Assembly: GCA_965277805.1 (NCBI GenBank)
Contig: OZ255842.1
Location: forward strand, 3,552,001-3,616,000
DNA: 64,000 bases
Direction of reading: 5' to 3'
Source: Candidatus Lustribacter sp.
GTDB lineage: Bacteria > Vulcanimicrobiota > Vulcanimicrobiia > Vulcanimicrobiales > Vulcanimicrobiaceae
Made by a program: the position numbers and the translations under genes. The notes under the pieces are model-generated. The model did no database searches. It was not told the DNA's origin and saw nothing but the letters and a program-made list of their open reading frames with translations. This document shows, one piece after another, positions 25,890 through 60,218 of this stretch. How positions within the stretch are numbered: the stretch's first letter is position 1; each line of letters opens with the position of its first letter.

Positions 25890-25890
25890 C

Positions 25891-29769: not shown

Positions 29770-31788
29770 CTATGCGAGGACCGCGGCCGGCTCGAGTTCG
29801 ACGCCGGGCGGGATTTCGCTGAAGGCGTAGACTTCGACGCGTGGGCCCACGCGGTCGAAGAACTCCGCAAGCAGCGGGCGCAGCGACGCGGTGACGACCA
29901 CGGCATGCGGCGCGAACGATGGATCGGCGAGAAACTGCTCGACGCCTTCGCGGACGCGACGGGCGGTGTGCGGGTCGGGGGCAAGGCCGGTTTCGCAGTT
30001 CCACATCCGCGCGAGCTCCGCGTCGAACTCCGGCGCTAGGATCAATGGGCGTATGCGGGTGACGGAATCGCGGCGGAATTGCTGCGGCACGATGATGCGG
30101 CGTACGGCTTCGGCCAGATCGCGTGGTTCACGTGCGTGCGGTGCGGCATCGAGCATCGCCTCGAAGACCGCGATCGGATCGCGCGGCCAGGCGCGCTCTC
30201 GAAGCAGCAACGCGACGGCGCGATGCGCGGTGACGATCGGCAACGCGTCCGAGCCGACGTCTTTTACGATCGACGGCACCTGCGCGCGCAAGTGCTCGAG
30301 CAGCGTCTGGAATTCTTGGCGGCCGAAAAGCTCCGCCGCGTTCGCACGGACGATTTCGGAGAGATGCGAGCCGATGATCGAGATCGCATCGAACGCCAGT
30401 GCTCCCGCCGCTTGCGCGAGGTCGCGCGCTTCAGGCAGAATCGATTTCGCCGTGAGCCCGTAGACGGGTTCGAGACACGGTTCGCCTTCGATGTGCGCGA
30501 GCACGGGTTCCGGTGCGACGGCGAGGAGGCGGTCGAGCCGGAGTCGTCCTTCGCCGGCGATGCGATCGCGCACGCGGATCGCGTAGGTGTCGGGTGCGCG
30601 CAAGCCGTCGTCGCGCAAACGCACACCCGGGATGACGATGCCCGTCTCCGCGGCAAGCGCGCGGCGCACGTCGCCGATGCGGTCGAGCAGCGCGTCGGCG
30701 TTCGGCGGCGCGAGCAATCCGTAGAGGTCGGTGCCGACGTCGATCGAGAGCGCGTCGACGCCGACCAGCGCAAACGCCGACTCAGGCCGGCGCACCGCGT
30801 CTTTGCGGCGCCGCTCGGCGGCCGCCCGGAGCGCGTCGTCGGCCCGCTTGCGGCGGGCGCCCGAGACCGATGCCCCGCCGAACGCGGCGAGTGCGAGCGC
30901 GCCGAACACCGGCGCCGGCAATGCCGGCACGAACGCCAGCACCGCCATCAGCACACCGGCCGTGCGCAGCGCGTCGGGGCGCGCGATCAGTTGCGCCGCG
31001 AGGTCGACCGCCAGCGCGCCTTCGCCCGCGACGCGCGTCACCATCAGCCCCATCGACGTGGAGATGAGGAACGCGGGCAGCGTGGTGACGAGCGCGTTGC
31101 CGATCGAAAGAATGGCGAACGTCTGCAGCGCGTCGAGCGGTCCCATGCCGTGGTAGAACACGCCGACCACCAGGCCACCGGCGAGGTTGAGCGCGACGAT
31201 CACCAGCGCCGCGATTGCATCGCCCTTGACGAACTTACCCGCGCCGTCCATCGCCGCGTAAAAGTCGGCCTCCCGCTGCACGCGCGCGCGTTTGCGGCGC
31301 GCGCCGTCGGCGTCGACCACGCCCGCGTGCACGTCGGCATCAATCGCCATTTGTTTTCCGGGCATCGCATCGAGCGTGAACCGCGCGGAGACTTCGGCGA
31401 CGCGCTGCGCGCCGCTCGCGATCACGATGAACTGGATCGTGATCAGAATAGCGAACACGATCAGACCGACGACGATGTTTCCGCGCACGACGAACGCGCC
31501 GAACGCCGGAATGATCGCGCCCACGCCGTCCGCCAGGTGGCCTTGCGTAAGGATGAGGCGCGTCGCGCTCACGTCGAGCGACAAGCGGAACAGCGTCGCA
31601 AGCAGCAACGCCGGCGGGAACGACGAGAATTCCAAGGGCTCTTCGACGCGCAAGCTCAGCAGCAGGATCAGCGCCGACCCGAAGATGTTCAGCGCCAGCA
31701 GCGCATCGAGCACGGCCGGCGGCAGCGGAACGATGAGGATTGCGACGATCGAGAGCACCGCCGCCGCGAACACGGCGTTCGGCTTCAT
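29770..31788 (-). CDS. flhA: Flagellar-type export gate protein FlhA
   Basis: FHIPEP motifs RVAEVSARFTLDAMPGKQMAIDAD and FYAAMDGAGKFVKGDAIA; full cytoplasmic domain. Confidence 0.92.
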   Translation of the reverse strand: MKPNAVFAAAVLSIVAILIVPLPPAVLDALLALNIFGSALILLLSLRVEEPLEFSSFPPALLLATLFRLSLDVSATRLILTQGHLADGVGAIIPAFGAFVVRGNIVVGLIVFAILITIQFIVIASGAQRVAEVSARFTLDAMPGKQMAIDADVHAGVVDADGARRKRARVQREADFYAAMDGAGKFVKGDAIAALVIVALNLAGGLVVGVFYHGMGPLDALQTFAILSIGNALVTTLPAFLISTSMGLMVTRVAGEGALAVDLAAQLIARPDALRTAGVLMAVLAFVPALPAPVFGALALAAFGGASVSGARRKRADDALRAAAERRRKDAVRRPESAFALVGVDALSIDVGTDLYGLLAPPNADALLDRIGDVRRALAAETGIVIPGVRLRDDGLRAPDTYAIRVRDRIAGEGRLRLDRLLAVAPEPVLAHIEGEPCLEPVYGLTAKSILPEARDLAQAAGALAFDAISIIGSHLSEIVRANAAELFGRQEFQTLLEHLRAQVPSIVKDVGSDALPIVTAHRAVALLLRERAWPRDPIAVFEAMLDAAPHAREPRDLAEAVRRIIVPQQFRRDSVTRIRPLILAPEFDAELARMWNCETGLAPDPHTARRVREGVEQFLADPSFAPHAVVVTASLRPLLAEFFDRVGPRVEVYAFSEIPPGVELEPAAVLA

Positions 31789-32807
31789 GCGGCGAGCACG
31801 CCGGCGCGGATGAGCGCCGAGATGGCCGTGGCGACCGCGACGAACGATTCGGCCGGAATCGGACGTCCCGCCTCGCCGCAGCGCCACAAGAGCCGCGCGA
31901 GTGCGATGTCCTCGACAACCGGAATGCGCGCGCGGTCGGCGATGGCGCGCACGTCGAGCGCAACCGCATCGGCCGCGCGCACGAGGATCTCGGGCACCGG
32001 GACCGCCGGCGGCGCATAGCGCAGCGCGATCGCGATGTGGGTCGGATTCACGACGACGAACGACGCCTCACGCGTGCGCGCGATCCCGCCGCGCACGAGC
32101 GTGCGGTGCAGTTGCTTGCGGCGCGACTTCGCTTGCGGGTCGCCGTCTTGCTCCTTCGCGTCGCGCTTGAACTCTTCGAACGTCATCTTCAATGACTGCA
32201 GCCAGCGCCGGCGCACGACCGCATAGTCGGCCAGCGCGAACAGCCCGCCGACCCCGGCCGCGACGAAGCAGGCCTGCAGCATGCCGTCCAGCGCCACGCC
32301 GGCCGCGGCCGGCACCGACGTCGTCGCCGTAACGGCGGCAACGGTCCGAACGCCCAGCGGTGCAACGATCGCAATGACCGCAACGAACGCAACGCCCGCG
32401 CGCGCTGCCGCCACGGCGGCCTCTGTGCCGAACATCCGTTTGATGCCCGGCAGCGGCGCGAGCTTCGCGAATGCGAACGTTACCGGCGCAACGCGCAGGC
32501 CGCCGGTTTGCGCGAAAGTGGTCAGCAAGCCGGCTGCGGCTGCGCACGCTGCCGGCACCAGCGCGAGCTCCGTCAACACGAGCAGCGGCAACGGATCGAT
32601 GGGTCCGGCGACGTTCGTGCTCGCGCGCACCGCGTTCGCCGCCGCCGCCGTAACGAGCGGTAAGCACGCCGTGAGCCCGAGCACCGCCGCGGCAAATCCG
32701 GCGATGCTCGCGAGTTCGTGCGAGCGCGCGGCATTGCCCTCGCGCTTCGCCCGTTCGCGCCGTGACGGCGTCGCGTCGAACCGTTTCTCCGCACCGTCAT
32801 CGCTCAC
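31785..32807 (-). CDS. flhB: Export switch protein FlhB
   Basis: EKRFDATPSRRERAKREGN..RSHEL, LKMT..E.K...KEQDGDP, NPTH autocleavage site; GTG start at 32807. Confidence 0.9.
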   Translation of the reverse strand: MSDDGAEKRFDATPSRRERAKREGNAARSHELASIAGFAAAVLGLTACLPLVTAAAANAVRASTNVAGPIDPLPLLVLTELALVPAACAAAAGLLTTFAQTGGLRVAPVTFAFAKLAPLPGIKRMFGTEAAVAAARAGVAFVAVIAIVAPLGVRTVAAVTATTSVPAAAGVALDGMLQACFVAAGVGGLFALADYAVVRRRWLQSLKMTFEEFKRDAKEQDGDPQAKSRRKQLHRTLVRGGIARTREASFVVVNPTHIAIALRYAPPAVPVPEILVRAADAVALDVRAIADRARIPVVEDIALARLLWRCGEAGRPIPAESFVAVATAISALIRAGVLAA

Positions 32808-33520
32808 GGGCGCAACTCGAACGGCAACACGAGCCACGGCTGCGCGGCCAGCGGCGCAAACAGTGGGATGCCGCTCAGCGCAACGACGATCGCGACCGCG
32901 AACACTACCGGAAACGCAAGCGAGAAGCTCGCCAGCCGCGGCACGACACGCGCCACCGCAGCCAGCGCGACCTGCACGGTCAACGCAACGGCCAGCGCCG
33001 GTGCCGCAATGAGCAGCGCGGCGCGAACGATCGTCGCGGGCAGTGCAATAGCGAACTGCGTCCACGCTGCCGGCGCGATGATCCCGCCGGGTGCAACGGC
33101 GTCGAAACTGCCCGCGAACGCGCGTACGACCGGCACGTAGCCGTCGAGGAGAAAAAAGCCGGCCAGAAAGACGGACGACCATAGACGGCCGAACGCCTGC
33201 GCCGAAGTGACGTTGGCGTTCGGCACCGCGCCGCGCACGCCGACGTAATCGTCGATCGTGCGCCCGGCGTAATATGCACCGTCGTAGAGCAGCGAGGCGC
33301 CGGTGCCGATGGCCGCACCGAGCAGCGTCTCGCCGGCAACCGCGAGCGTGAACCGGACGCCGTCGAAGGACGCAGCGCGCACGTGCGGCGCGATGACGAA
33401 AGCCAGCGCGAGCGCCAGTGCCGCGCGCACCGGCGGCGGCACGCTTGGGTGCGAGAAGCCCGGTGCCCGGAAGATCATGCCTGCGCTGCGCGCGAAGACG
33501 AGCAGCATCGTCTGCGTCAT
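32804..33520 (-). CDS. fliR: Export gate protein FliR
   Basis: LLVFARSAGMIFRAPGFS..VPPPVR, AGETLLG, AGRTID, IAAP; located between fliQ and flhB. Confidence 0.85.
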   Translation of the reverse strand: MTQTMLLVFARSAGMIFRAPGFSHPSVPPPVRAALALALAFVIAPHVRAASFDGVRFTLAVAGETLLGAAIGTGASLLYDGAYYAGRTIDDYVGVRGAVPNANVTSAQAFGRLWSSVFLAGFFLLDGYVPVVRAFAGSFDAVAPGGIIAPAAWTQFAIALPATIVRAALLIAAPALAVALTVQVALAAVARVVPRLASFSLAFPVVFAVAIVVALSGIPLFAPLAAQPWLVLPFELRP

Positions 33521-33783
33521 CCACGCACGAGCTGCGGGATGCGCGCCACCGCCTCGAGCAGCAATTGCTCGCAAAGCGTGAGGCCGAAACGGCCGAACAG
33601 CGCGCAGGCGAGGCCGACGACGATGACTTTCGGTAACAGCGTGAGCGTCTGTTCCTGGATCTGCGTCGCTGCCTGAAGGATTGCCACGAGCGCGCCGACG
33701 AGCGTCGCAATCGTCAGAATCGGGATCGTCAACAGCGCCGTTACCAGCAGCGCGTCACGTAAGAGGCTCTCAAACTCGGCCAC
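33517..33783 (-). CDS. fliQ: Export gate protein FliQ
   Basis: VGALVAILQAATQIQEQTLTLLPK. Confidence 0.92.
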   Translation of the reverse strand: MAEFESLLRDALLVTALLTIPILTIATLVGALVAILQAATQIQEQTLTLLPKVIVVGLACALFGRFGLTLCEQLLLEAVARIPQLVRG

Positions 33784-41172: not shown

Positions 41173-41173
41173 G

Positions 41174-44107: not shown

Positions 44108-45942
44108 ATCGGCAGGTCGTCCTCGCGGCCGGCGTCCTGCTGCTCTGCATCGCGACGTTTCATCGCGCGTACACGCTTGCGACGTTTGCGCCGGCCAACC
44201 GCATCGTCGTCGGAATGGTGTATGACTCCAGACCTCTGGCGTCGGAGTCGGAGCTGCTCGCGGCGTACCAGTCGTTTTTTGAGGAAAACGGCATCCCGTT
44301 CACCATGGTCGCCTCAAGCGATCTCGTGCTGAAGACGCCTGACGAACTGATCGCAACGTTTCCTGCCCTCGTCTTCGGGGACGGGGTCGACGCCTGGGTC
44401 CCCGCCGCCACGCCGCAATTGATGCGTCGATATGCGGCCCTGGGCGGTAACGTGGCGCTGATCGGAGACGTTGGAACCCGGGATCGATTTGGGCAATTTC
44501 TCGGGCGCGCGGCGACCGCCGACCTGATCGGGGTCGACTACGTGCGATATTCAATCAGCCCGCAAACGTCGCTTTTTCACGGATCGTTTCAATTCGCCGA
44601 CGACGCCACGGTGGCCCGATGGGGCGTCCCGCTCGGAAAATTGACGCCGAAATTGGAGATCGCGTCCTATCAGTACGGCCCGTTGATCTATCCGTTCGCA
44701 AAGGCTGTCGTCATTGCACCGGACGTTCGGATCGATGCATCGAGTGGCAATAGCCCGGTGCTGGCGACGCGCCGCATCCGTCGCGGGAACGTCCTTTGGA
44801 CCGGACTGCCGCTGGGCTACCTGAAGGGTCACAGCGATGCCTTTCCCATGCAACTCATCTTACAGCAGTTTCTGGACCATACGGCCGGCGTGCCGCATCT
44901 CGTGCCCGCGCCGGGCGGCATCGGCCGTCTTATCATCAACGTCCACCTCGATTCGAATGCGGAGTGGCAGTCGATCCCGCACCTATTTGCCGCACGGCTC
45001 GTTCGCAAAACGGTACCGATGGAGTTCGACGCGACGGCCGGCCCGGATCGCGACCGCCCGGGTGATCACGAAGGCCTCGACGCGTGCGGACTCGGTGAAC
45101 CGCTGATTCGAGAACTCGAGGGATACGGCACGATTGGATCTCACGGCGGCTGGGCGCACAACTATTTCGCCTGGGGTGTCGAGGACGGCACGCTCGCGAA
45201 AAACCGCATCACCGATCTCATCAAGCGCAACAACGAGTGCCTCACGAGCATTACCGGCAAGCCGATCCGCAGCTTCGCGGCTCCCGATGGCGCTCAACCG
45301 CAACCATTGATGACAAACATCTTGGCGCGGTTGGGCATGAATTCGTATTACTATACGGGCGATACCGGAATGTCGGCGACGCGCGCCTTCTACGACGGAA
45401 GAATGGTGAGCTCGTCCGTTTGGGCGTTCCCGATCATGCCGTACGATCGCGCCGCATCCCTACATGAGATGGCCGTCGCGAAGGACAAGCCACAAGCCGT
45501 TCTGCATTGGCTCGACACCTCGGCAGCGTACGCGGCGCGCACGCGTTCGATCATGTTGGTGTACAGCCATGGCTACGACCTCTTCGTAAACGATCAGTTC
45601 GACTCGTCGTTCAGGAGCTTCTTGGACTCCGTCCAACGTCTAGAGAAATCGGGCCGGCTCTTGACGGCCGGCATGGCGCAATCCGCAACCTTTCTGCAAC
45701 GGTTCGTCACGACGAACGATACGTTCGAACGGACGACGCACGGCATGATCGTTCATTTAGCGAACGGCAAGGGGCTCCGGGATATCGCGTTTGCGGTGCC
45801 GTTCGGCTACGTCCCGCAAGTTCGTACGCCGTGGTTGGCGTACCGCGGCGCGGAGCAGGCGTCCGGAGTATTCGCGATTACCGACAATCGCAAGACAGCC
45901 GACATATCATTTTCCACGACGTCTATGACGCTGCGTCGATGA
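44104..45942 (+). CDS. Secreted polysaccharide deacetylase family protein
   Basis: NVHLDS, IGSHGGWAH, FAAPDG, YYYTGD and VYSH NodB-like motifs. Confidence 0.75.
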   Translation: MNRQVVLAAGVLLLCIATFHRAYTLATFAPANRIVVGMVYDSRPLASESELLAAYQSFFEENGIPFTMVASSDLVLKTPDELIATFPALVFGDGVDAWVPAATPQLMRRYAALGGNVALIGDVGTRDRFGQFLGRAATADLIGVDYVRYSISPQTSLFHGSFQFADDATVARWGVPLGKLTPKLEIASYQYGPLIYPFAKAVVIAPDVRIDASSGNSPVLATRRIRRGNVLWTGLPLGYLKGHSDAFPMQLILQQFLDHTAGVPHLVPAPGGIGRLIINVHLDSNAEWQSIPHLFAARLVRKTVPMEFDATAGPDRDRPGDHEGLDACGLGEPLIRELEGYGTIGSHGGWAHNYFAWGVEDGTLAKNRITDLIKRNNECLTSITGKPIRSFAAPDGAQPQPLMTNILARLGMNSYYYTGDTGMSATRAFYDGRMVSSSVWAFPIMPYDRAASLHEMAVAKDKPQAVLHWLDTSAAYAARTRSIMLVYSHGYDLFVNDQFDSSFRSFLDSVQRLEKSGRLLTAGMAQSATFLQRFVTTNDTFERTTHGMIVHLANGKGLRDIAFAVPFGYVPQVRTPWLAYRGAEQASGVFAITDNRKTADISFSTTSMTLRR

Positions 45943-46484: not shown

Positions 46485-47144
46485 TCACCGGAACGAGGCG
46501 ACGACGCCGTTGCAGACGAGTGCCCAGCCGTCGACGAGTACGAATAGGAGCAGTTTGCAGGGGAGTGAGATGATGGGCGGGCTTAGCATGAACATCCCCA
46601 GGCCCATCAGCACGGCGGCGACGGCAAGGTCGATGGCGACGAACGGGAGATAAAGCGCGACGCCGATCGCGAACGCGCTACGCAGTTCACCGACGACGAA
46701 CGCGGGGATCAGAACCGTAAGCGGCGTGCGTTCGGGCGCTTCGTCGGACGGGCGGTGCGCGACGTGCGCGAAAACGTCGATGTCGCGCCGTTTCGTCTGC
46801 CGCAGCATGAACGCGCGCAGCGGTTCGACGGCACGATTGAGAAACTGCCGCTGCGACATCGTACCGGCGGCGTACGGGCGCAATGCGTCGTGCTCGATGC
46901 GCTCGATCGTCGGCGTCATGATGACGAACGTCAACACGAGCGCGAGGCCGGTCAACACGGGATTCGGCGGCAGCGATGCCGCGCCGATCGCGGAGCGCAC
47001 CAGCGAGAGCACGACGACGATGCGAACGAACGACGTCGAAAGCACCAGCACGAACGGTGCGATCGAGAGGAGCGTCAGCCCGGCCAGAATATCGAGCGGC
47101 AGCGCCGCGTGATTGCGGCCCGCGATCGAAAGCAACTCGTCCAT
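46485..47144 (-). CDS. fliP: Export gate protein FliP (no N-terminal signal extension)
   Basis: LTLLSIAP..TSFVRIVVVLS, PPNPVL, PLRAFMLRQT, LIPAFVVGEL, LYLPF..IDL, KLLLFVLVDGW. Confidence 0.95.
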   Translation of the reverse strand: MDELLSIAGRNHAALPLDILAGLTLLSIAPFVLVLSTSFVRIVVVLSLVRSAIGAASLPPNPVLTGLALVLTFVIMTPTIERIEHDALRPYAAGTMSQRQFLNRAVEPLRAFMLRQTKRRDIDVFAHVAHRPSDEAPERTPLTVLIPAFVVGELRSAFAIGVALYLPFVAIDLAVAAVLMGLGMFMLSPPIISLPCKLLLFVLVDGWALVCNGVVASFR

Positions 47145-47182
47145 GCGTCCACCGTAGACGGTGCGCATGGCCGCGATGTTAC
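47145..47182 (-). promoter_or_regulatory. Direct-repeat motif plus -10 box, probable leaderless promoter of fliP
   Basis: Minus strand GTAAC-N6-GCCAT-N10-TACGGT-N6-ATG. Confidence 0.55.
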
Positions 47183-47186
47183 CGCG

Positions 47187-47444
47187 TTACGGTTTTTCGA
47201 TGAGCTCCGTGACGCGGACGCCGAAGTTTTCATCGATGGCGACGACTTCGCCGCGCGCGACGAGGCGATCGTTGACGAGCAAGTCCACCGGACCACCGGC
47301 GAGACGATCGAGTTCGACCACCGAACCCGTCCCGAGCTTCAGGATGTCGCGCACCAACATTTTGGCCGTGCCAAGTTCAGCCGTTACCGTGAGCGGCACG
47401 TTCATCAACAGATCGAGATTATTGCCGTCCGGCGCGATCACCAC
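47187..47444 (-). CDS. fliN: C-ring protein FliN
   Basis: NLDLLMNVPLTVTAELG..ILKLGTGSVVELDRLAGGPVDLLVN..ARGEVVAIDENFGVRVTE. Confidence 0.95.
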   Translation of the reverse strand: MVIAPDGNNLDLLMNVPLTVTAELGTAKMLVRDILKLGTGSVVELDRLAGGPVDLLVNDRLVARGEVVAIDENFGVRVTELIEKP

Positions 47445-48235
47445 GGATCTCCCCTCGGGGTAATGGACCGTACTTCGAATGCGGGCCGGCCATGTTGCAG
47501 GCCGCAGGTCCCGAAGCCAATCCTCTGGCCGCCGACGTTCAATTCGCCCTCGCCGTCGACCTTGGTACTCAGCAGGACAACGGTGCCGACTCGGAGCTCG
47601 AGCAGGCGTGGAACGGCCAGTTCCCCGCGTCCCAGGAGCACCCGGACATCCACCGCGGCGCCGCCGAGCGTGGCGGGGGTCACGGTTGCCGACGGCGGCG
47701 CCTCAGGCAGGTCGCGCACGATCCCGACACCCAGCGTCAGCGCCACCGGCGCCGTGACCCGAACGTCGAAATAGGCCACCGACCGTGGGACCTGTGCCGC
47801 TTCGACCGCGCGCGTCGGCCCACGCCGCTCCACGCACAGCGCCTCGCAGGCGTTCGCGCAGCGGGCTACGATGCGTTCGATCGCCCCGGCCTCGAGCGCA
47901 CTCCAGGAACCTTGATCCGCGGATGAATCTTCGCCGAACGCCGCCGCCACCAGCCGGCGCGCGTCGCGGGCCGCGAGTACGAACACGACATCGGTCGCGC
48001 GGCCGGGGGTCGCGAAGAGCAGCGCGTCCTGCGTGAGGCTGCGCCAGGCCGCCGCATCGAGGGCAACCGGCTCGCCGATCGTCACGCTGCACGCCTCGCC
48101 CAAGAGTGTCCGCAAGCCCTCGCGCACGCCGTTGGCAAGAACGCAGGCCGCATCGACCGGGAGGCTTGGACGGGGCACGAAACGGGTGTGCCGCACGCGT
48201 CCGCGGCGCGGCCCGAACGCAAGCGTCGCGATCAC
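47438..48235 (-). CDS. fliM: Divergent FliM-like C-ring protein
   Basis: C-terminal SpoA domain (VRVLLGR..LLELRVGTVV.L..LNVGG..GTCG), SALE.GAIERI CheC-like helix; located before fliN; lacks the N-terminal LSQxEIDALL CheY-binding peptide. Confidence 0.65.
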   Translation of the reverse strand: MIATLAFGPRRGRVRHTRFVPRPSLPVDAACVLANGVREGLRTLLGEACSVTIGEPVALDAAAWRSLTQDALLFATPGRATDVVFVLAARDARRLVAAAFGEDSSADQGSWSALEAGAIERIVARCANACEALCVERRGPTRAVEAAQVPRSVAYFDVRVTAPVALTLGVGIVRDLPEAPPSATVTPATLGGAAVDVRVLLGRGELAVPRLLELRVGTVVLLSTKVDGEGELNVGGQRIGFGTCGLQHGRPAFEVRSITPRGDPW

Positions 48236-48954
48236 TTGAGCAAATCCATCACGACTTTGGAGCCCGCGCCCTGCGCTTTGTTCGCGGCCTGCAGCGCGGA
48301 GAACGCAACGTAGGCTTCGGTGAGCCGTTGCAAGCCGGTATCGATGTCGACGTTGCCGATGTCGCGAGCGTGCGTCGCGAGCGCGGGGAATGCGCCGTCG
48401 GCCGGCGCACCGACGTGCGGCACGATGCCGGCCACCGCACCGAAGTGCGTCGCATCGAGCCGCTGCGGATTGCTCCCGGCCGGAAATCGCGCCAGCGCAA
48501 TGCGCCCGACGACCGCGCGTTCGGCTGACCGTTCGCGCGTGCGCGGATCGATCGACGTGCGTGTGTACGCCAGCACGCCGTCGTCTTCGAGGTGCACGTC
48601 GGTGCCACGGCCGAGCGTGCGATCCGGCTCGGGCAAGCGCAACGGCGCGAGCGCGCCGCCGCCGGGCGGCGTGCCGAGCACGCGCGCGCCGTCGGCCGTT
48701 TGCAGCGTGCCGTCGCTGCCGATATGGAAGCTGCCGGCGCGCGTGAACGTGCGCGCACCGCGCTCGTCCGCCGCGACGAACCACGCGCCGGGCGGTGCCG
48801 CGACGCTGAGCGGATCGTCCGACGGTAACGGCGGCAGATTGCCGCCCACGTCGCCGAATTGCGGCATCGCGCCCGGTGTATAGGCGGCGAGCACGTCGTT
48901 CGCGCGATCGGCGATACGTTTGAGCGCATCGAGCGAGGCGGCCGGCAGCATCAT
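48232..48954 (-). CDS. Divergent FlgE/F/G-family rod/hook protein
   Basis: WFV..FTRAGSFHIGSDGTLQTADGARVLG, VGRIALARF, NVDI..L.RL.EA (GNVDI replaces SNVD). Confidence 0.75.
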   Translation of the reverse strand: MMLPAASLDALKRIADRANDVLAAYTPGAMPQFGDVGGNLPPLPSDDPLSVAAPPGAWFVAADERGARTFTRAGSFHIGSDGTLQTADGARVLGTPPGGGALAPLRLPEPDRTLGRGTDVHLEDDGVLAYTRTSIDPRTRERSAERAVVGRIALARFPAGSNPQRLDATHFGAVAGIVPHVGAPADGAFPALATHARDIGNVDIDTGLQRLTEAYVAFSALQAANKAQGAGSKVVMDLLK

Positions 48955-49475
48955 GGCGCGCCGACCCGCACGCCGCTGCCGGCCAATGCGAAGCGCGCGC
49001 TCGCGAGCGCACGTTCCACGACATCACGCAGCGGATTGCTGCAGAGCGCAACGATGCGCAGCGCCGTGCCGTCGTGATGAACGAGCAGACGCACGCGCCC
49101 GCCCGCGACGTCGAGGGTGTGCGTGGCCGGCACCGGACGGCGCGCGCTGAGCCGTTCCACCGCCCGCTCGATGCGCCGTGTCGTCTCGCTCGGCGGGCGC
49201 CGCCGTTCGGGTACCGCCGACGCGCGTGCGTCTGCAGCGTGCCGCACGCGCGTGGGCGGCGGCGCGATGACGCGTTCGCGGTGAGGCGGAACCGCAGCAA
49301 CGCGCGCGAGCACCGCCGGACGCGCATCCTCTGCGCTGCGCTGCGCGGCCGGCATTCGCGCCGGCCCCGCATCGTGCGCCAAATGCAGCGCGGAATACCA
49401 GGCTTCGCTGAGCGCGCGCCGGTCGGTCTGCGCGATCTGGGTGGCGATCACCGCCACGCCGTCGGATGCATTCAT
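48951..49475 (-). CDS. Hypothetical protein, possibly FliK-like (hook-length control C-terminal domain)
   Basis: Pro/Ala/Arg-rich linker, then GRVRLLV..LRIVALC..LRDVVERAL..LA..GVRV; occupies the fliK position; RBS GGAGG. Confidence 0.45.
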   Translation of the reverse strand: MNASDGVAVIATQIAQTDRRALSEAWYSALHLAHDAGPARMPAAQRSAEDARPAVLARVAAVPPHRERVIAPPPTRVRHAADARASAVPERRRPPSETTRRIERAVERLSARRPVPATHTLDVAGGRVRLLVHHDGTALRIVALCSNPLRDVVERALASARFALAGSGVRVGAP

Positions 49476-51518: not shown

Positions 51519-53099
51519 TTACATCCCCGGCCGTTCGAGATACAGCGCGTGGCCGGCGAAGTCGAAGGTGACCGTGAACTTGCGCAGGAGGGCGAGGCCC
51601 ACGTTGCCTGCGTCGATGCGGTCGGCGAAGGCGCCGCTCTTGGCTTGGATCACGTCGGCGTCTTGGTTCGAGACGGTCGTCGAGCCGAGCCGCAGCGAGC
51701 TTATCCGCGTGGCATAGCTCTTGTCGCTGCCGCCCACGCCGATGAAGCTGCCCGTCCCGGTGCCCACCGCCGGCGCCAGCGCCGGGTGCGCGTCGGCGAA
51801 GGGACCGTAGATCAAGAGCGGGCTGCTGTCGCCCGTGTCGATGATGAAGGGCGCGTCGATGTCGTTGATGCGCAACACCGCCTCGGGAATGTCGCGGTCG
51901 GTATCGATTGCGATGCGGTCGCCGGCCGGTGTAATCGAACCGGGCGGGCCGAAGCGCATCACGTGGTGCGCGAAGTCGAGCTGCACGATGCTCGCGGCGA
52001 AGAACGGATAGCCCAAAATGCCGTCGATGCGCATGTGGCCGGCCGACGAACCCAACTCGATCGTCGAGATGACCAAGTTGTCGAGATATGCGTTGCCGAT
52101 CGTCAAGCGCGGCAATCGCGCGACGTGCAGGCCGCCCGCGCGCACCGCGCCGCGCACTTCCATCGAGCCTTCTTGCCCGATACCGGCCGCTTGCGCGACC
52201 TGCGAATCGAGCAGCACGTCGGCGGATCCGCTGTCGATGAGAAATGCGTACGGTTTGCCGCCGATCTGCACGACGCACGCGATGCGCGTGCCGTCATCGA
52301 GCAGCGGTACCGTTTGCGCGCCCGCAGCGATCAACCGCCGCGGCACAAGTGGCGCAAACAGGGCGCCGTCGATCGCGCCGCCGACTTTCACCGACGTCGT
52401 TTGCACGATCGTATCGAAGTCGTGTTCGCCGTCGGTCGTGACGGCGTGAAACGCCATCGCCATGCCGCTGACGTCGTGCCAGTCCGACAGGTCCACGTAC
52501 GTCGGCCCGTCGCCGTCGAGATATTCCGTGCGCAGCGGCAAGCCGCTCTCGGTATCGATCCAGATCGTTTCGGGTTCGCCGCCCTCGGCGTTGACCTCGA
52601 TGTTCCACGTGCGCCGGTCGCCGACCATGCCGAAGGCCAGAAAGCGCGCGCGTTCGGGCGCGGTGAGAAATTTTCCCGAATCGATGAAGTTCGCGGTCAG
52701 CGCGCGCCGGCGCAGCACGCCGGTGAGTTCTTGCACGTTGCCGTCGCTCGACGCCCAGATGCGATCGCCGATGCGCAGCGTCGTTTCCATCCGTGGACCG
52801 AGGCTCTCATCGTCGCGTTCGCGGTCCCCGTCGCGCCAGCTGTGAAAGACGCCGCTGAGTCCTTCGCCCGTAATCGTGCCGGTGGTTTCCATCGTCGCAA
52901 CGTCGCGGCCGTGCGTGGCTTTCTGATACGCCGCGAGAATGCCGGTGATCGGCGGCGGATCGCCGATATCGCGTGCTTCGGCAACGGGCATGCACGCAAG
53001 CGCAATCAGCGCCGCGGCAAAGAGAACGCCCTTACGGTTGCGAGCGGTACTGGTCGAGCGAACCGAGGACGTTTTTGACGTAGTTTTGCGTCTCGGCAT
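51519..53099 (-). CDS. Secreted aspartyl protease with two retropepsin-like domains (start uncertain)
   Basis: FLIDSGS..DGILG and FIIDTGD..GNVG; hydrophobic signal [12 protein letters not shown]; 5' end overlaps the slt gene. Confidence 0.8.
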
Positions 53100-53610
53100 A
53101 CGGGGGCACATCACCGTATTTTTCAACGGCATTCGGACCGGCATTGTAGGCGGCGACCGCAAGGCGCGTGTCGCCTTTGAAACGATCGAGCAGGCCGCGC
53201 AGATAGCGCGTTCCGCCCGCAACGTTCTGGGCGGGATCGTAGGGGTTCTTCACACCGAGCGACGCGGCCGTCTCGGGCATGAGCTGCATCAGCCCCTGCG
53301 CGCCGACCGGCGACGTTGCGTTGGCGTTGAACGACGACTCGTTCGCGATGACGGATTTGATCAGCGCGGGATCGACTTGCCAGATGTCGGCGTTCTGCTG
53401 CACGAGCGAGTTGATCTGCTCGGGCGGAACGGGTGCGGGCGCGTCGGGATTCTCCGTGCTCGCCGGGGCGAGTTCGGGCATCAGCGCCTGTGCGAGGACC
53501 GCGTTGAAATCGCTGCCGGGCGGCGTCGTGACGACGGCGCCGGCCGGGGGTGCTCCGCTAATCTGGGCAATCCGGTTCTGGATCGCCGAGATGTCACTGA
53601 GGATATCCAT
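53032..53610 (-). CDS. Lytic transglycosylase (SLT domain)
   Basis: [41 protein letters not shown]. Confidence 0.95.
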
Positions 53611-54640
53611 CGTCCAAGCTATCGGCGATTGCGGTCATCTGCATGAGGGTTTCGGCCGGATCCGCTCCCCCCTCCGCTTGCTTGAGAAAGCCCGCGATGC
53701 GGGCCTCGGCGGCGATCGCGCGGGCCAGGACGGGATCGCCGGCACCCGGATCGAGGCCGAGTGAGCGGGCATCGCGAGCGCTATCGAGCGCAGCCAGAGC
53801 TGCCCGCAGGCGCGCCGCAGCGCGACGATGCTCGGGCGTTGCGACTTCGCCCAGGGTGCGGCTCGCGCTGGCCGGGAGATCGATCGCCGGAAACCAGCCC
53901 GCGGCCGCGAGACGCGCGCTGAGGACGATGTGGCCGTCCAGCGCGGCCCGCGCGGCCTCGGCGACCGGATCGTGCTCCAGCGGGCCCTCGGAGAGCACGG
54001 TGGCCACCAGCGTGATGCTGCCGGCCGCCGTCGCCCCGGCGCACTCGAGGAGCCGTGCCTGTGTAGCCGTGACCGATGGTGGAAAACCCGCGCGCCCGAC
54101 CGGCTCGCCCCGCGCGATGGCGAGGTCGCGCGCGGCCGCTGCGACCCGCGCTAGGCTGTCGACGACCAGCAGCACGTGCAGTCCGCGCGAACGCAACGCG
54201 TCGGCCTGGGCAAACGCCATTTCCGCCACGCCCAGCCGTTCCGCCGCGGGACGGTCGCTCGTGGCGCACAGGACGGTCGTGCGCGGCGGGATCCGGCGCA
54301 GCCAGCGCTCGGCCTCGCGGCCCCGCTCGCCGGCCAGCGCCACCACCGTGGCGTCGGCGCAGCTGCCGGCGACGATCGCTTCGAGCAGCGTCGACTTGCC
54401 GGCCCCGGGGCTGCCGAAGATCCCGATCCGCGCGCCGCGCCCGAACGCGAGCGGGCCGTCGAGGGCGCGGATCCCGGTGTGGAACGGCGTCGTCACGGCG
54501 ACGCGCCGGCGCAGTTCCGGAACGCGCGGTGCGGCCGCCCGGCGCCGTCCGATCGGAGCCGGACCGCCGTCCAGCACGCAGCCGCCGGCACCGACGGCGC
54601 GGCCGAGCAGCGCCGTTCCGAGCACGACGCGCGCACTCAT
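53594..54640 (-). CDS. fliI: FliI/SctN export ATPase, N-terminally shortened (348 aa)
   Basis: [53 protein letters not shown]. Confidence 0.9.
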
Positions 54641-54921
54641 GACACGCGCTCGAGCAACGCCGCGAGTACCGCGTCGATCTCGCGGCCCAATGCTGCACGC
54701 GCGGCCTTCCCGAGCGCGGGATCGCACGATGCATCGAACGCGTCGGCGAGCCGCGCGCGAAACACGCGCACGTCGCGCGCGAAATCCGCACCATCTGCAC
54801 GCGCCGGCGGTTGCGGTTCGGCCGGCGCATCATCTGCCGGCGGCTCCTCCGCGACGGTCGCTTCGGGTGCGGCGCGCAACAACTGCGCGAACGAGACGAA
54901 CGCATCGTCAGCCGCGGGCAC
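54637..54921 (-). CDS. Small protein at the fliH position (miniature FliH-like)
   Basis: ~94-aa ORF overlapping both fliF/G and fliI; acidic/Pro linker, then helices (ARDVRVFRARLADAFD..AARAALGRE); GTG start uncertain. Confidence 0.45.
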   Translation of the reverse strand: MPAADDAFVSFAQLLRAAPEATVAEEPPADDAPAEPQPPARADGADFARDVRVFRARLADAFDASCDPALGKAARAALGREIDAVLAALLERVS

Positions 54922-56377
54922 GCAACAACTCCTCAGGATGCGGCACGAGGTCGCTCGCGGCGCGCGCCAGTCGCCGCACGATTTGCGCGCGCTCCTCAGG
55001 CGGATAGAGTTCGAGCACGGCGGCGGCCGTCGCGGCCGGCAGCGCGGAGATGACGGCGGCGGCAACGTGCGGCGGTTCGCCGGCGAGCGCGCCGCGCACG
55101 CGCGCCGGTGGAAGTCCCGCTGATTCGCGCGATGACTTGCGCACGCCGGCCGCTTCCACCGCGCGCACCAGCAAGGCATAGACCGGGCGCGCGCTGCGCA
55201 ACGTCAACACGACGGCACCCGCGACGAGGGCGAGTTGCGGCAGCATGCCGGTGAACAATCCCGCAATGCCCCACGCATCAATCCCGCGTACCGCGGCCGG
55301 CGCCGTCGAGGCGAAGCGCACGGCCTCGACGCGCAACGTATCCCCGCGATGCGCGTCGATGCCGGCCGCGGCCGCCGCGAGCGCGCGAATCGCATCGAGA
55401 TCGATGCCGCGCGCGCCGTCGACGAAGATCGCGACCGATAGGCGCGCGGTCGCATCGGGCGCAGCGGAATGATGCACGTCGCGCGTTTCGCTGCCGCGCT
55501 CTTCGGTGGTCGTGGTTTTCTGGTACTTCTTCTGCGGGCTCGCGTAGCGTTCGTCGCCGTTCGTGCGGGTGAGATCGCCGGCCAGCGGGAGACGTTTGAC
55601 GTCGTGCTCGTCGCGCGCTTCGCCCAGCGGTTCGCGATGCACGCGGACGATCGTCGCGCCCGCGCCGAGCGCCGCATCGAGCGCCGACTGCAGCGAGGCT
55701 TGCAGCGACGTGTCGTCGGGTTCGCTCGTGCCGCCGTCGAGCGCACCGCGATCGTCGAGCACGGTCACGCGCGCGGCATCCAAACCCGGCACACCGCCGG
55801 CGACGAACGCGCGAATACCCGCCACCGCCGCCGGCGAAAGATGCGCGCCCGGCGCGAGCGTGATGCGGACGCTGGCCGATGCGTCGCGCGTCGTTTCGTC
55901 GGCATAGGCGCCGGAACTCGCCGGCGCCACGATCACGCGCGCATCGGCGACGCCGTCCAATCCTCGCAGGCCTTGCGCGAGATCGGCAGCCAGCGCATCG
56001 CGCGTCTGCGCTTCGAGAATGCTCTGCGGCGTGAGCGCGTTGACGTGCGCGAACGTTTCGTCCGACGTGGCGAGATGCCGGTGCGGAACGCCGGCCAGCG
56101 AAAGCCGCAACAGCAACTCCGCGCGTTTGCGCGGATCGACGCGCACGTTGTCGGCCAACGGCGCGTAAGGAACGCCCCAGCCGGCGAGGCGCGTCTGCAC
56201 TTCGGTCAACTGATCCGCGTAGAGCGGCGTGGCGAACAGCGGGATGCGCACGTCGCGCGTCGCGGTGACGCCCCAGCCGAGCGCGACGATCGCCGCGACG
56301 AAACCCGCGAACAGCGCGGCCTTGAGACGCAGCGGCAACGCGCCCAGACGCGCAAGCTCGCGCCGGAACACCTCCAT
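54908..56377 (-). CDS. fliF: MS-ring protein FliF fused to a FliG middle-domain segment
   Basis: TM1, ASASV..L.PG..LS..V.GI..FVAGGVPGLDAARVTVLD, RLSVAIFVDG, GID..RGD.L.V, TM2, then EPPHVAAAVISALP..AAAVL..YPPEERAQIVRRLA. Confidence 0.85.
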   Translation of the reverse strand: MEVFRRELARLGALPLRLKAALFAGFVAAIVALGWGVTATRDVRIPLFATPLYADQLTEVQTRLAGWGVPYAPLADNVRVDPRKRAELLLRLSLAGVPHRHLATSDETFAHVNALTPQSILEAQTRDALAADLAQGLRGLDGVADARVIVAPASSGAYADETTRDASASVRITLAPGAHLSPAAVAGIRAFVAGGVPGLDAARVTVLDDRGALDGGTSEPDDTSLQASLQSALDAALGAGATIVRVHREPLGEARDEHDVKRLPLAGDLTRTNGDERYASPQKKYQKTTTTEERGSETRDVHHSAAPDATARLSVAIFVDGARGIDLDAIRALAAAAAGIDAHRGDTLRVEAVRFASTAPAAVRGIDAWGIAGLFTGMLPQLALVAGAVVLTLRSARPVYALLVRAVEAAGVRKSSRESAGLPPARVRGALAGEPPHVAAAVISALPAATAAAVLELYPPEERAQIVRRLARAASDLVPHPEELLRARG

Positions 56378-56380
56378 CGG

Positions 56381-56656
56381 CTAGATCTGCAGGCCCAGCA
56401 GCGTTTGCAGTCCCTGCGTGACGCGTTGCGCGCTTGCGGCAGCGAGCTGCAGCGCGATGTCGGCCCGCGCGCGCTCGACGACCATCTCTTGCAGTCCGCC
56501 GCGATGCGCCGCAAACGCGCGCTCGGCATTATCGGCTCCGGCGAGCGCGCCGCTCGCGGCATCGACCAAATCGCCGAACGCGCTTCCAGCTTGCGGCAGC
56601 GGGGTGACCGACGGCGCGTCGGGCGCAACGTCGGGAACGAGCGGTGCGACCTGCAT
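56381..56656 (-). CDS. fliE: Hook-basal body protein FliE
   Basis: FGDLV..A, LQEMVVERARADIALQL..RVTQGLQTLLGLQI, matching the FliE C-terminus. Confidence 0.8.
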   Translation of the reverse strand: MQVAPLVPDVAPDAPSVTPLPQAGSAFGDLVDAASGALAGADNAERAFAAHRGGLQEMVVERARADIALQLAAASAQRVTQGLQTLLGLQI

Positions 56657-56988
56657 CAGCGTTCGATGTCCAACGTGCGTTCCGCCAGCCGTTTCCCGAT
56701 GTCGAAGATCGATGCGTCGGCTTCATACGCGCGCTGCGCATCGAGCGTCGCGATCAGCTCCGTCAACGCATCGCCCGTGCCGGGTTCCGACGACACCGTG
56801 AAGGCTTCGGTCGTGTCGTCCTCGGCGCCGTCACCCGGAGTTTCCACGAGATGCGCAACCAAACGCTGATACGGATGTCCGGGCGTCGCGGCTTGCGCAG
56901 CCGCTACGTTGCGCGCGTCGAGGTCGAGCATCGTCCGCTGCGCGCTCATCCCGCGCGCCGCAACGTCGAGCAACGCAAAATCCGTCAC
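56656..56988 (-). CDS. flgC: Rod protein FlgC (short, divergent)
   Basis: DVAARGMSAQR..LD..ARNVA, PYQR, ELIATLDAQRAYEA..TLDI. Confidence 0.8.
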   Translation of the reverse strand: MTDFALLDVAARGMSAQRTMLDLDARNVAAAQAATPGHPYQRLVAHLVETPGDGAEDDTTEAFTVSSEPGTGDALTELIATLDAQRAYEADASIFDIGKRLAERTLDIER

Positions 56989-57170
56989 TTCGCCACCAGC
57001 TTGAGCTCGTTCACGCGCGCCTTCACCGCGCCGAGCAGCGCTTCGGTAAACAGCGCCTGCCGCGCCACCGCGCCCATCGACCGCTCATTCGCAGCCCGGC
57101 TCGCCGCAGTAAGTGCATCCCGCGCCCCGGCAGCCGCCGCCGCAGTGGCGTCCCCAATATCAAGACTCAT
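56985..57170 (-). CDS. Miniature FlgB-like protein (61 aa)
   Basis: First gene of the operon, before flgC; C-terminal SMGAVARQALFTEALLGAVKARVNELKLVAK resembles the FlgB C-terminal helix. Confidence 0.5.
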   Translation of the reverse strand: MSLDIGDATAAAAAGARDALTAASRAANERSMGAVARQALFTEALLGAVKARVNELKLVAK

Positions 57171-58499: not shown

Positions 58500-58895
58500 T
58501 TAGCGCTTCGAGAACTGGAAGCGTTTGCGGGCGCGTTTGCGGCCGTACTTCTTCGATTCTTTTTCGCGCGGGTCGCGCGTGAGGAGGCCGTTGCGGCGCA
58601 GCGGTTCGCGCAGCGCTTCGTCCATCTCGAGCAACGCACGAGCGATGCCGTGGCGCACGGCGCCGGCTTGTCCGGCCGGTCCGCCGCCGGCGCACTTCAC
58701 GTCGACGTTGAAGCGCGAGCCGGCTTCGGTGACAACGAGCGGCTGCCGCACGATTTGCTGCAGGACCGCGCGGGGGAAGTAATCGTCGATCGGCTTTTTG
58801 TTGACCGTGATGACGCCCTGACCGAGGGTCATCCGGACGCGCGCGACGGCGCGCTTACGACGGCCGGTTCCGAGAAAAAGTTCTGCTGGTTGCAT
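58500..58895 (-). CDS. rpsI: 30S ribosomal protein S9
   Basis: [47 protein letters not shown]. Confidence 0.98.
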
Positions 58896-58898
58896 GCC

Positions 58899-59324
58899 CT
58901 ACGCCAACGCCGCGGGCTTTTGGGCCGCGTGCGGATGAGAGTCGCCGACGTAGACGCTGAGACGTCCGAGCTGGACGTTGCGCATCCGGTTGGTCGCCAG
59001 CATGCCGCGAACGGCGCGCTCGATCAAACGTTCCGGGTACTTCGCACGAACCTGTGACGCCGTCTCGGTGTGGAGGCCGCCGGGAAAACCGGAGTGACGG
59101 TGATAGACCTTCTGGTTCCACTTGTCGCCGCCGAGCTCGATCTTGTCGGCGTTGATCACGACGACGAAGTCACCGGCATCGATGTGCGGGGTCCAGGTGG
59201 GCTTCTTGCGGCCCGAGAGCGTGCGAGCGATCTTCACCGCGAGCGTGCCGAGGCGTTGCCCCGCCGCGTCGACGATGTACCAATCGTGCGTGGCCTCTGC
59301 CGTGGTCTGTTGGTAGGTGCGCAT
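58899..59324 (-). CDS. rplM: 50S ribosomal protein L13
   Basis: WYIVDA..LG, KP.WTPHID.GDFVVVINA, YHRHSGFPGGL, AVRGML, HPHAAQKP. Confidence 0.98.
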   Translation of the reverse strand: MRTYQQTTAEATHDWYIVDAAGQRLGTLAVKIARTLSGRKKPTWTPHIDAGDFVVVINADKIELGGDKWNQKVYHRHSGFPGGLHTETASQVRAKYPERLIERAVRGMLATNRMRNVQLGRLSVYVGDSHPHAAQKPAALA

Positions 59325-59420
59325 GTCTTCTAATCTGTCAGCAAGAGAATAAGACCGCTCCGGCTCGGAACGGCAACCTAAGGAGTATACCGGGAGAGCC
59401 GGGGGATGTCCAGGCCTTGG

Positions 59421-59451
59421 GTGGCGGCCCCTCGACAAGCTCGGGGTGACA
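59421..59451 (+). repeat. Dispersed REP-like repeat, copy 4
   Basis: GTGGCGGCCCCTCGACAAGCTCGGGGTGACA. Confidence 0.8.
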
Positions 59452-59456
59452 GCTGC

Positions 59457-60218
59457 TTAGCTTGCTTGCTCTGAGTCGAAGTTGGGATAGCGGACGCCGA
59501 CGAGGCAGAGGCCTTCGGGCGGGGCGGTATAGCCGGCGCGTTTGCGGTCGCCGGAGCCCAGGATCGCGGGGATGTCGTCCGGGGGGCGGCGGCCGGTGGC
59601 GATCTCTACCAGGGTGCCGGTGATCCGCCGGACCATGCGGTGGAGGAAGCCCTGCCCGGCGATCCGCAGGACGATCCGGTCGCGGCTGCGGTCGATGTCG
59701 ATCGAGTGGATCGTCCGGACCGTCCCGCCGCGCTCGGGCGCCAGGCCGCAGAACGCCACGAAGTCGTGGGTGCCGATCAGGCCGGCCGCGGCCACCCGGG
59801 CCAGTTCGACGTCGGCGGCGCGATGGACGTGATGGGCGAACCGGCGCTCGAAGGCCGAGGGCATCGGCCGGTTGATGATCCGGTACTCATACGTGCGCGC
59901 CTCCGCGTCGAAGCGCGCGGAGAAGCCGTCGGGCGCGAGGCCGGCGTAGCGCACGGTGACGTCGCGCGGGAGGTTGCCGTTCATCGCCAGCGCGAGCCGT
60001 TCGACCGGAAATTCACGCTCGCTCGTAAACGAGATGACTTGGCCCGAGGCATGCACGCCGGCGTCGGTGCGGCCGGCGGCGCTGATCTTCACCGTTCCGG
60101 CGAACAGTAGGCCGAGCACGCGCTCGAGTTCGCCGGCAACGGTTCGCACTTCAGGCTGAAATTGCAATCCGCAAAAGTTCGTGCCGTCGTACTCGACGAC
60201 GGCGCGATAGGTCGGCAA
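59457..60218 (-). CDS. truA: tRNA pseudouridine(38-40) synthase TruA
   Basis: EYDGT.F.G.Q.Q, AGRTDAGVHA.GQ, FSARF, GTHDF, FLHRMVR, APPEGL.L. Confidence 0.96.
   Translation of the reverse strand: MPTYRAVVEYDGTNFCGLQFQPEVRTVAGELERVLGLLFAGTVKISAAGRTDAGVHASGQVISFTSEREFPVERLALAMNGNLPRDVTVRYAGLAPDGFSARFDAEARTYEYRIINRPMPSAFERRFAHHVHRAADVELARVAAAGLIGTHDFVAFCGLAPERGGTVRTIHSIDIDRSRDRIVLRIAGQGFLHRMVRRITGTLVEIATGRRPPDDIPAILGSGDRKRAGYTAPPEGLCLVGVRYPNFDSEQAS

Follow-up and report, generated by a model that had tools for sequence, protein, structure and literature searches.

A natural FliF–FliG middle-domain fusion in a second, reduced flagellar-type gene set of Candidatus Lustribacter sp.

In the canonical flagellar motor a C-terminal peptide of the ring protein FliF binds the N-terminal domain of FliG (FliG_N), the FliG middle domain (FliG_M) binds FliM, where its EHPQ...R motif has a role in docking, and the C-terminal domain (FliG_C) meets the stator. 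In the injectisome, by comparison, a static inner ring (SctJ/SctD), connected to SctQ through the adaptor SctK, tethers a sorting platform of the FliM/FliN family. Engineered or mutant FliF–FliG fusions of Salmonella and Vibrio reportedly form one chain with 1:1 stoichiometry, keep FliG_C and support rotation, and a Salmonella deletion-fusion of 1992 is said to remove the FliF C-terminus and FliG_N as well. A natural counterpart is also in print. According to Bergeron 2016 (PeerJ, PMC4768692), FliF of the Chlamydiaceae comprises about 330 aa and misses part of the periplasmic region; its cytosolic end shows homology to the M region of FliG, and docking of the FliM/FliN homologue SctQ is its proposed role. 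Here we describe a fusion from a 64,000-nt stretch of Candidatus Lustribacter sp. (contig OZ255842.1, positions 3,552,001 to 3,616,000; hereafter the window). One open reading frame (ORF) of the window encodes a natural in-frame FliF–FliG_M fusion without FliG_N and FliG_C, and this gene belongs to a conserved set of about 17 flagellar-type genes. The protein probably forms the MS ring of a second type III export apparatus, a reduced derivative of the flagellum that would be non-rotary and have a built-in FliM docking domain. An earlier note, made from the letters of the window alone, had overrated the novelty of the arrangement, which is limited by the Chlamydiaceae FliF–FliG_M fusion already described in PMC4768692.

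The fusion protein and the identity of its tail

Position, minus-strand orientation and length (489 aa) of the fusion ORF are as the earlier note gave them, and the frame continues past the second transmembrane segment (TM2, assigned by eye) into the tail peptide quoted there. Pfam FliG_M (PF14841) matches residues 426–472 at profile positions 3–49 of 76 (36.2 bits, E 7.4e-9, curated cut-off 25), and the same match was recovered in a scan of the whole genome (38.9 bits, E 4.7e-9). Neither FliG_N (PF14842) nor FliG_C (PF01706) gave a Pfam match in the fusion protein, and PF01706 matched nowhere in the window. The C-terminal FliF peptide that binds FliG_N was not found in the fusion either, which on comparison by reading runs from TM2 through a linker of about 30 residues to FliG_M and then ends. 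The canonical FliF of the same genome, unlike the fusion, ends in a separate helical C-terminal tail. As the fusion scores far below the equivalog cut-offs of NCBIfam fliF (TIGR00206; 44 bits, cut-off 129.75) and fliG (12.7 bits, cut-off 226.7) and is 28% identical to this canonical FliF, it is regarded as a divergent FliF paralogue.

A profile was prepared from an alignment of seven orthologous tails (mean column identity 83%) and compared to all PDB sequences. It returned 15 matches at E<=10, of which 12 are FliG, every one of these on FliG_M, with 3usw_A as the best match (E 0.0072). In the PDB alignments the EPPH of the fusion falls on the EHPQ of FliG, and RRLA falls on the Arg-bearing helix; EPPH and the Arg of RRLA are invariant in all seven aligned tails, i.e. 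the motif is retained in this form. The tail aligns to positions 9–67 of the 75-residue Thermotoga maritima FliG_M chain 4qrm_B and therefore represents a nearly complete FliG_M fold. The last 94 residues were modelled with AlphaFold2 (core predicted local distance difference test score, pLDDT, 85–92); in the model a long linker helix leads into five short ones, and in a Foldseek search of the PDB its top 12 matches are FliG chains. The root-mean-square deviation (rmsd) is 0.8–0.9 Å over 48–52 columns to 3usy_B, 4fq0_C and 4qrm_D, two of them from FliG–FliM complexes. BLASTP of the tail against the FliG of its own genome aligned FliG residues 144–208 (25% identity, E 0.009). The E-values of the tail are individually marginal, yet all converge on FliG_M. 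The assignment to the middle domain made in the earlier note was thus borne out by Pfam, PDB profile and fold matches, and the tail covers nearly the whole of FliG_M rather than a fragment of it. Assignment of the tail to FliG_N was rejected, as no FliG_N match was obtained and as the PDB alignments all lie in the EHPQ region of FliG_M.

The genes directly downstream of the fusion are a short FliH-like ORF and then FliI; in agreement with the earlier note, no separate fliG follows. A hidden remainder of fliG in another downstream frame was rejected, since nothing but the FliH-like ORF and the beginning of FliI appears in the three frames of 54600–55210. To an assembly error or frameshift that joined fliF to a fliG fragment we assign a probability close to nil. 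Such an artefact would accord with frame breaks in two of nine related loci, all from named metagenome-assembled genomes (Candidatus Lustribacter sp., Vulcanimicrobiota bacterium, Candidatus Eremiobacteraeota bacterium). However, the breaks in L016 affect the fusion gene and many other genes, the frame change in L013 comes with an ambiguous base, and in the remaining seven loci the fusion gene reads through in a single frame as far as the same end, as in at least 120 database proteins and 66 genomes. No coding remnant of FliG_N or FliG_C was seen downstream in any frame. Logan contigs of two runs cover 54500–56400 with 0 differences and 0 gaps through the junction; both runs (X1, X3) are from one sample, possibly the source of the assembly. 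A frameshift or assembly error was rejected.

Conservation of the tail was followed in larger collections. A search of 5.8 billion proteins with residues 395–489 gave 414 proteins at E<=0.001, and among the matches listed (the best 120 of the 414) PF14841 was found in 120 of 120 and all three domains in 116. When the tail was run against 1.84 billion cluster representatives, no more than 60 matches were obtained at E<=0.001; 24 of them are proteins of 426–505 aa with the match at the C-terminal end, and two (P0177, P0180) have the length of a FliG and match in mid-protein. The same scan also returned P0141, a protein of 2142 aa with nine stretches matching the FliG_M-like tail. When 26 cluster representatives of 420–520 aa were compared to the window protein, identity amounted to 0.62 in residues 424–475, to 0.40 in residues 1–395 and to 0.19 in the linker. 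No other part of the fusion protein is as well conserved as the tail, which speaks for selection on it.

Distribution in the family and the canonical flagellar system

The window lies within a single 5.53-Mb contig, on which a canonical flagellar cluster is found at about 0.93–0.96 Mb. This cluster holds a full-length FliF and a full-length FliG together with FliI, FliM, FliN, FliP, FliQ, FliR and FlhA, to which the window copies are 25–50% identical. The canonical FliG (362-aa frame, C1:935686-936774) adjoins its own FliF and matches FliG_N, FliG_M (93 bits) and FliG_C (142.5 bits); the only strong FliG_C match in the genome is at C1:936421-936741, and FliG_N matches the canonical FliG frame only. 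Flagellins and two MotB_plug genes are also encoded. The second MotB_plug match (G000:C1:3199728-3199889, 79 bits, 418-aa frame) is distant from both flagellar clusters. As the organism is probably motile through its canonical system, the “non-motile role” put forward in the earlier note holds for the apparatus and not for the cell.

The tail profile was searched at E<1e-15 in 151 genomes of the phylum (72 of the window family, one of the sister family and 78 others). Of the 72 family genomes 66 have it, with more than 30 genera represented among them, and so does the one sister-family genome; in the other 78 genomes nothing was found except three weak matches to ordinary FliG (324–327 aa). 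FliG_C was found in 27 of the 72 family genomes, all 27 of which carry the fusion, so that 39 of the 66 fusion-bearing genomes are without any FliG_C and six genomes have neither. One 1.9-Mb genome (G077) has, besides its main copy, a second, weaker tail match (C18:22038-22241, E 8.3e-15, 509-aa frame). In a second sample of 81 family genomes, Flagellin_N was found in 38; one of these, G165, is unpublished, and no conclusion is drawn from it. For genomes common to both samples, Flagellin_N is absent in 12 of 12 that bear the fusion and lack FliG_C, and present in 19 of 20 that have FliG_C. MotB_plug and FliG_N were each found in none of four single-contig fusion-only genomes (97–99% complete), whereas the window genome is positive for both. 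The reduced system is often the sole flagellar-type system of its host. That the ring of the fusion-only genomes is not stator-driven and yields no torque is well supported, in line with the claim of the earlier note that it “cannot be driven by stators”.

A full-length fliG elsewhere in the genome, named in the earlier note as grounds for refutation if it served this ring, does exist (see above, ~0.93 Mb). As it adjoins its own FliF and 39 of 66 fusion-bearing genomes manage without FliG_C, it is not generally needed by the fused ring. The same two observations argue against a shared rotor, in which the fused ring of two-system genomes would recruit the canonical FliG, FliM and stators for a rotating flagellum. 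The presence of full-length FliG, FliM and two MotB_plug genes in the window genome is compatible with such recruitment; the fusion, however, is without the FliF peptide that would bind FliG_N, and we consider a shared rotor very unlikely.

Gene set, FliM-like neighbour and proposed apparatus

In four single-contig relatives the same genes stand in the same order in one compact cluster of about 14.5 kb, and loci L009–L017 share the same gene order. The window genes, all on the minus strand, are arranged in three patches (Table 1). Among them is a 265-aa FliM-like protein, for which an AlphaFold2 model (pLDDT 78) was compared to the PDB with Foldseek. The model matches full-length Salmonella FliM (8umx_C, E 3.5e-10) and the FliM middle domains 4fq0_A (rmsd 3.1 Å over 160 columns), 4gc8_A and 2hp7, with rmsd values of 3.1–4.2 Å overall. 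The Pfam FliM model found only the canonical FliM in the whole genome. Modelled together with the tail, the FliM-like protein gave a complex with a score of 0.37, compared to 0.00 for the best of three controls; runs agree in 100% of contacts and the partner has a pLDDT of 85. In calibration, 58 of 80 solved complexes passed the mark, as did 2 of 110 mismatched pairs; only 7 of the 80, but both of the passing mismatches, did so with a score of 0.60 or under. As FliG_M–FliM_M complexes are solved structures, the prediction may reflect likeness only, and it lends weak support to docking of the FliM-like protein by the tail. Of the earlier claim that the ring can dock a FliM/FliN ring, the FliM fold of the neighbour has thus been recovered; docking itself we infer, with a weak predicted complex, just as we do apparatus assembly, export activity and the substrates.

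The proposed apparatus may be outlined as follows. The non-covalent link between FliF and FliG_N would be replaced by a covalent one, with the torque-receiving part gone, such that every ring subunit would bear one FliM-docking domain (1:1 stoichiometry) and no torque helix. Most likely the FliM-like protein and FliN sit on this ring as a static C-ring or sorting platform, which may feed the FliH/FliI ATPase and the FlhAB–FliPQR gate. Exported substrates would be FliE, the putative FlgB, FlgC and the rod-like proteins, possibly followed by later substrates. The apparatus is not expected to rotate.

Several observations weigh against this reading. In the window lineage the operon lies in three separate patches, FliH is about 90 aa long and FliI is without its N-terminal domain, from which decay in the window's own lineage appears possible. 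The short FliH is common to the window and its closest relatives (L009, L012), in which FliI begins just before the ATPase core with the N-terminal domain of about 85 aa missing, and in L010 and L011 just ~180 nt separate the fusion gene from FliI. The more distant L014 (7440-8300), L015 (7320-8150), L020 (395-1260) and L022 (490-1330) have a FliH of about 165–190 aa and a FliI with N-terminal domain. Carried further, decay would turn the second gene set into a dying flagellar duplicate and the tail into a functionless remnant of a degraded fliG; most components do score below the NCBIfam equivalog cut-offs. This relic we consider improbable, as the frame has been kept in 66 of 72 family genomes, the tail is the best conserved part of the protein, start–stop overlaps (GTGA, ATGA) are retained, and the gene order is whole in four complete fusion-only genomes, which have no other flagellar-type system. 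For the window strain alone, with its full-length FliG, two MotB-type genes and flagellins, a mixed assembly may be possible.

Further points on the same side concern the docking itself. E-values of the tail against the PDB are marginal (0.007 by sequence, 0.011 by fold), and MgtE N-domains come next after FliG in the fold list. The docking motifs have drifted, with EPPH in the fusion vs EHPQ in FliG, and AFGE in the FliM-like protein where canonical FliM has its GGPG loop, the latter being a pairing by eye and to be taken as a lead. When the FliM-like alignment was compared to canonical FliM with hhalign, the C-terminal SpoA domain alone could be aligned (probability 25%, E 7.8e-4), and homology to the FliM middle domain therefore rests on the fold search. 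Together with the weak predicted complex and a Pfam MgtE_N score of 13.7 bits on the fusion protein, the MgtE likeness and the changed motif would also suit a different partner: a generic ARM/MgtE_N-like tail could bind FlhA_C, FliH or a ligand such as Mg2+, and thereby regulate the gate instead of holding a C-ring. We judge this to be distinctly improbable, since all top sequence and fold matches are to FliG_M and not MgtE, and since in each relative examined the operon also codes for a FliM-fold protein and FliN; we know of no attachment point that the FliM-like protein and FliN would have without FliG_M. Finally, the one RNA run gave short contigs only, including a 284-nt piece with 0 differences over 56242–56400, for which DNA carry-over is possible. 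RNA run X8 covers 14 of 30 bins of the stretch, mostly by pieces of ~30 nt at 90–95% likeness, and run X5 covers 8 of 30.

Table 1. Flagellar-type features of the window, with the domains of the fusion protein. Positions are those of the window; the coordinates of the fusion ORF include the stop codon.
Feature	Position	Strand	Evidence and remarks
FliF–FliG_M fusion ORF, 489 aa	54908..56377	-	ORF list, Pfam, conservation
YscJ_FliF domain (ring-building motifs RBM1-2), residues 50-213	55739..56230	-	Pfam PF01514, 82.9 bits vs cut-off 24.4
YscJ_FliF_C, residues 272-355	55313..55564	-	Pfam PF08345, 40.1 bits vs cut-off 23.8, profile positions 58-147 of 147
Second hydrophobic segment (TM2), ~residues 369-393	55199..55273	-	Read by eye from translation
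FliG middle-domain (ARM_M-like) tail, residues 426-489	54911..55102	-	Pfam, PDB profile search, AlphaFold2 and Foldseek
Patch 1: FlhA, FlhB, FliR, FliQ	29770-33783	-	
FlhA, start uncertain	29770..31887	-	Pfam FHIPEP 638.1 bits; NCBIfam FlhA 626.6 vs SctV 467.8
FlhB with NPTH site	31785..32807	-	Pfam Bac_export_2 213 bits; NCBIfam SctU 199.7, flhB 185 bits
FliR	32804..33574	-	Pfam Bac_export_1 120.3 bits
FliQ	33517..33783	-	Pfam Bac_export_3 71.3 bits
Patch 2: FliP, FliN, FliM-like, FlgE/F/G-family protein, orf174	46485-49475	-	
FliP	46485..47168	-	Pfam FliP 243.8 bits; NCBIfam fliP 236.8, over cut-off
FliN, 85 aa	47187..47444	-	Pfam FliMN_C 91.9 bits; NCBIfam fliN 105.2, over cut-off 84.05
FliM-like protein, 265 aa	47438..48235	-	Pfam FliMN_C 41 bits at C-terminus; AlphaFold2 and Foldseek; GTG start
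FlgE/F/G-family rod- or hook-like protein, 240 aa	48232..48954	-	Pfam LlgE_F_G_D1 32.3 bits
orf174, candidate SctP/HpaP/FliK-type switch protein	48951..49475	-	ESM Atlas look-alikes
Patch 3: SLT, FliI, FliH-like ORF, fusion, FliE, FlgC, 61-aa ORF	53032-57170	-	
SLT lytic transglycosylase	53032..53610	-	Pfam SLT 103.8 bits; NCBIfam flagellar assembly lytic transglycosylase 85.3, below cut-off
FliI-type ATPase without N-terminal domain	53594..54640	-	Pfam ATP-synt_ab 181.5 bits, T3SS_ATPase_C; likely ATG at 54640
FliH-like ORF, shortened, ~90 aa	54637..54906	-	Frame reading; start uncertain, probably GTG overlapping the end of the fusion gene
FliE-like protein	56381..56656	-	NCBIfam fliE 19.6 (cut-off 30), Pfam FliE 15.2 bits, both below cut-off; position conserved in all relatives
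FlgC-like rod protein	56656..56988	-	NCBIfam FlgC 44.8 bits, below cut-off 102.1
61-aa ORF at FlgB position (putative FlgB)	56985..57170	-	No family match; conserved in relatives

Flagellar NCBIfam models outscore injectisome models for four of the five gate proteins: besides FlhA, this is the case for FliP (236.8 vs SctR 181.7), FliQ (62 vs SctS 48.5) and FliR (95.9 vs SctT 70.1), and only FlhB favours the injectisome model. FliI scores 293.5 bits on SctN and 281.5 on FliI_clade1, in both cases from profile position ~68–76. The FliH-like ORF gave no Pfam or NCBIfam match; its orthologues were matched in L009, L012, L013, L016 and L025. The 240-aa rod-like protein scores 40.5 bits on the FlgEFG subfamily and 35.4 on flgF, both below cut-offs. 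No Pfam or NCBIfam match was obtained for orf174 either, which is conserved in every cluster; in its ESM Atlas look-alike clusters HpaP is carried by 45% (score 0.93) and 93% (score 0.91) of members. Taken together with the NPTH site of FlhB, these HpaP/SctP look-alikes hint at a substrate-specificity switch. Stop and start codons overlap at 48232-48235 (GTGA, rod-like and FliM-like genes) and at 54637-54640 (ATGA, FliH-like ORF and FliI), suggestive of translational coupling.

The patches are separated by unrelated genes (aconitase, TctAB, polysaccharide genes, Crp, redoxin, aspartyl protease). Two of them are parted by a polysaccharide block on the plus strand (39158-45942) with a YaiO-like barrel, a family-2 glycosyltransferase, a bactofilin-like protein and a polysaccharide deacetylase. 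A minus-strand gene at 51519-53222 encodes a protein with two aspartyl-protease matches, a weak LolA-like match and, by eye, a Sec-type signal peptide; it lies within the flagellar-type cluster in most relatives (L009–L017, L020, L022, L025), but not in G097. In three fusion-only genomes a gene of ~300 aa, methylenetetrahydrofolate reductase-like by eye, sits between fliP and fliQ in operon orientation (L020:7314-8213, L022:9127-10062, L023:13768-14667). The chromosomal neighbours are constant across the family, with truA-rplM-rpsI on one side and secD-secF and a RecQ-like helicase on the other (window 22634-27165 and 58500-60218; L019:14665-17000; L020:12965-17654), which argues for vertical inheritance from the ancestor of the family.

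A wider reading is possible, albeit in our view doubtful: one family of the Eremiobacterota may have kept, since its common ancestor, a non-rotating flagellum-derived machine that secretes non-flagellar cargo in free-living soil bacteria. The machine would consist of MS ring, static C-ring, gate and rod together with a switch (FlhB NPTH, SctP/FliK-like ORF). If true, it would parallel the first step of injectisome evolution, independently of the proteobacterial examples and those of the PVC (Planctomycetes, Verrucomicrobia and Chlamydiae) bacteria, and the FliF–FliG_M fusion would take the role of the SctD/SctK adaptor. FliG has two jobs, namely holding the FliM/FliN ring, which aids export, and receiving torque; here only the first would appear to be kept, joined to the membrane ring. 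The gene set may thereby offer a natural test of whether a C-ring can form and serve export without FliG_N, FliG_C and stators, and a living example of how a flagellum can be pared down to a secretion or basal-body device, in a soil phylum of which little is known. No paper on an Eremiobacterota flagellar or type III system of this kind was found in a literature search that left supplementary tables aside.

Comparison with known systems

Compared to canonical FliF and FliG (e.g. Salmonella; 8umd, 8umx, 8wiw, 9n49), the window locus shares the ring domains of FliF, the FliG_M fold, a FliM-fold neighbour, FliN and the order fliE-fliF-[fliG]-fliH-fliI. It differs in the covalent link, in having no torque-helix FliG_C and, for the fusion-only genomes, in having no stator. 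The engineered and mutant fusions keep FliG_C, whereas the window fusion ends after FliG_M. Natural FliF–FliG(M+C) fusions of Planctomycetota, known to us as leads from ESM Atlas clusters, likewise place ring domain and FliG_M on one chain, but keep FliG_C in 31–94% of cluster members; our literature search returned no paper on planctomycete FliF–FliG fusions.

By analogy, the proposed apparatus would resemble the injectisome in that a non-rotating ring holds a platform of the FliM/FliN family for type III export. It is set apart by the gate proteins, four of five of which score higher on flagellar models. The secretin SctC, SctD, SctK and the needle protein SctF were not seen among the scanned cluster genes, with no dedicated genome-wide search made.

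The Chlamydiaceae fusion described in PMC4768692 is of the same kind: a single chain with a FliF-type ring and a FliG_M-like end after TM2, without FliG_N or FliG_C, in hosts that are not thought to be flagellated. The chlamydial fusion is one of few flagellar genes and occurs beside a full injectisome. The window fusion, in contrast, comprises 489 aa with both FliF Pfam domains and the full periplasmic region kept. On the 341-position NCBIfam model NF004606, which we take to be the chlamydial FliF model, it scores 19.2 bits (cut-off 297), aligned over residues 132–235 only. It further differs in its setting, a rod–gate–ATPase–C-ring set of about 17 genes in a free-living soil lineage.

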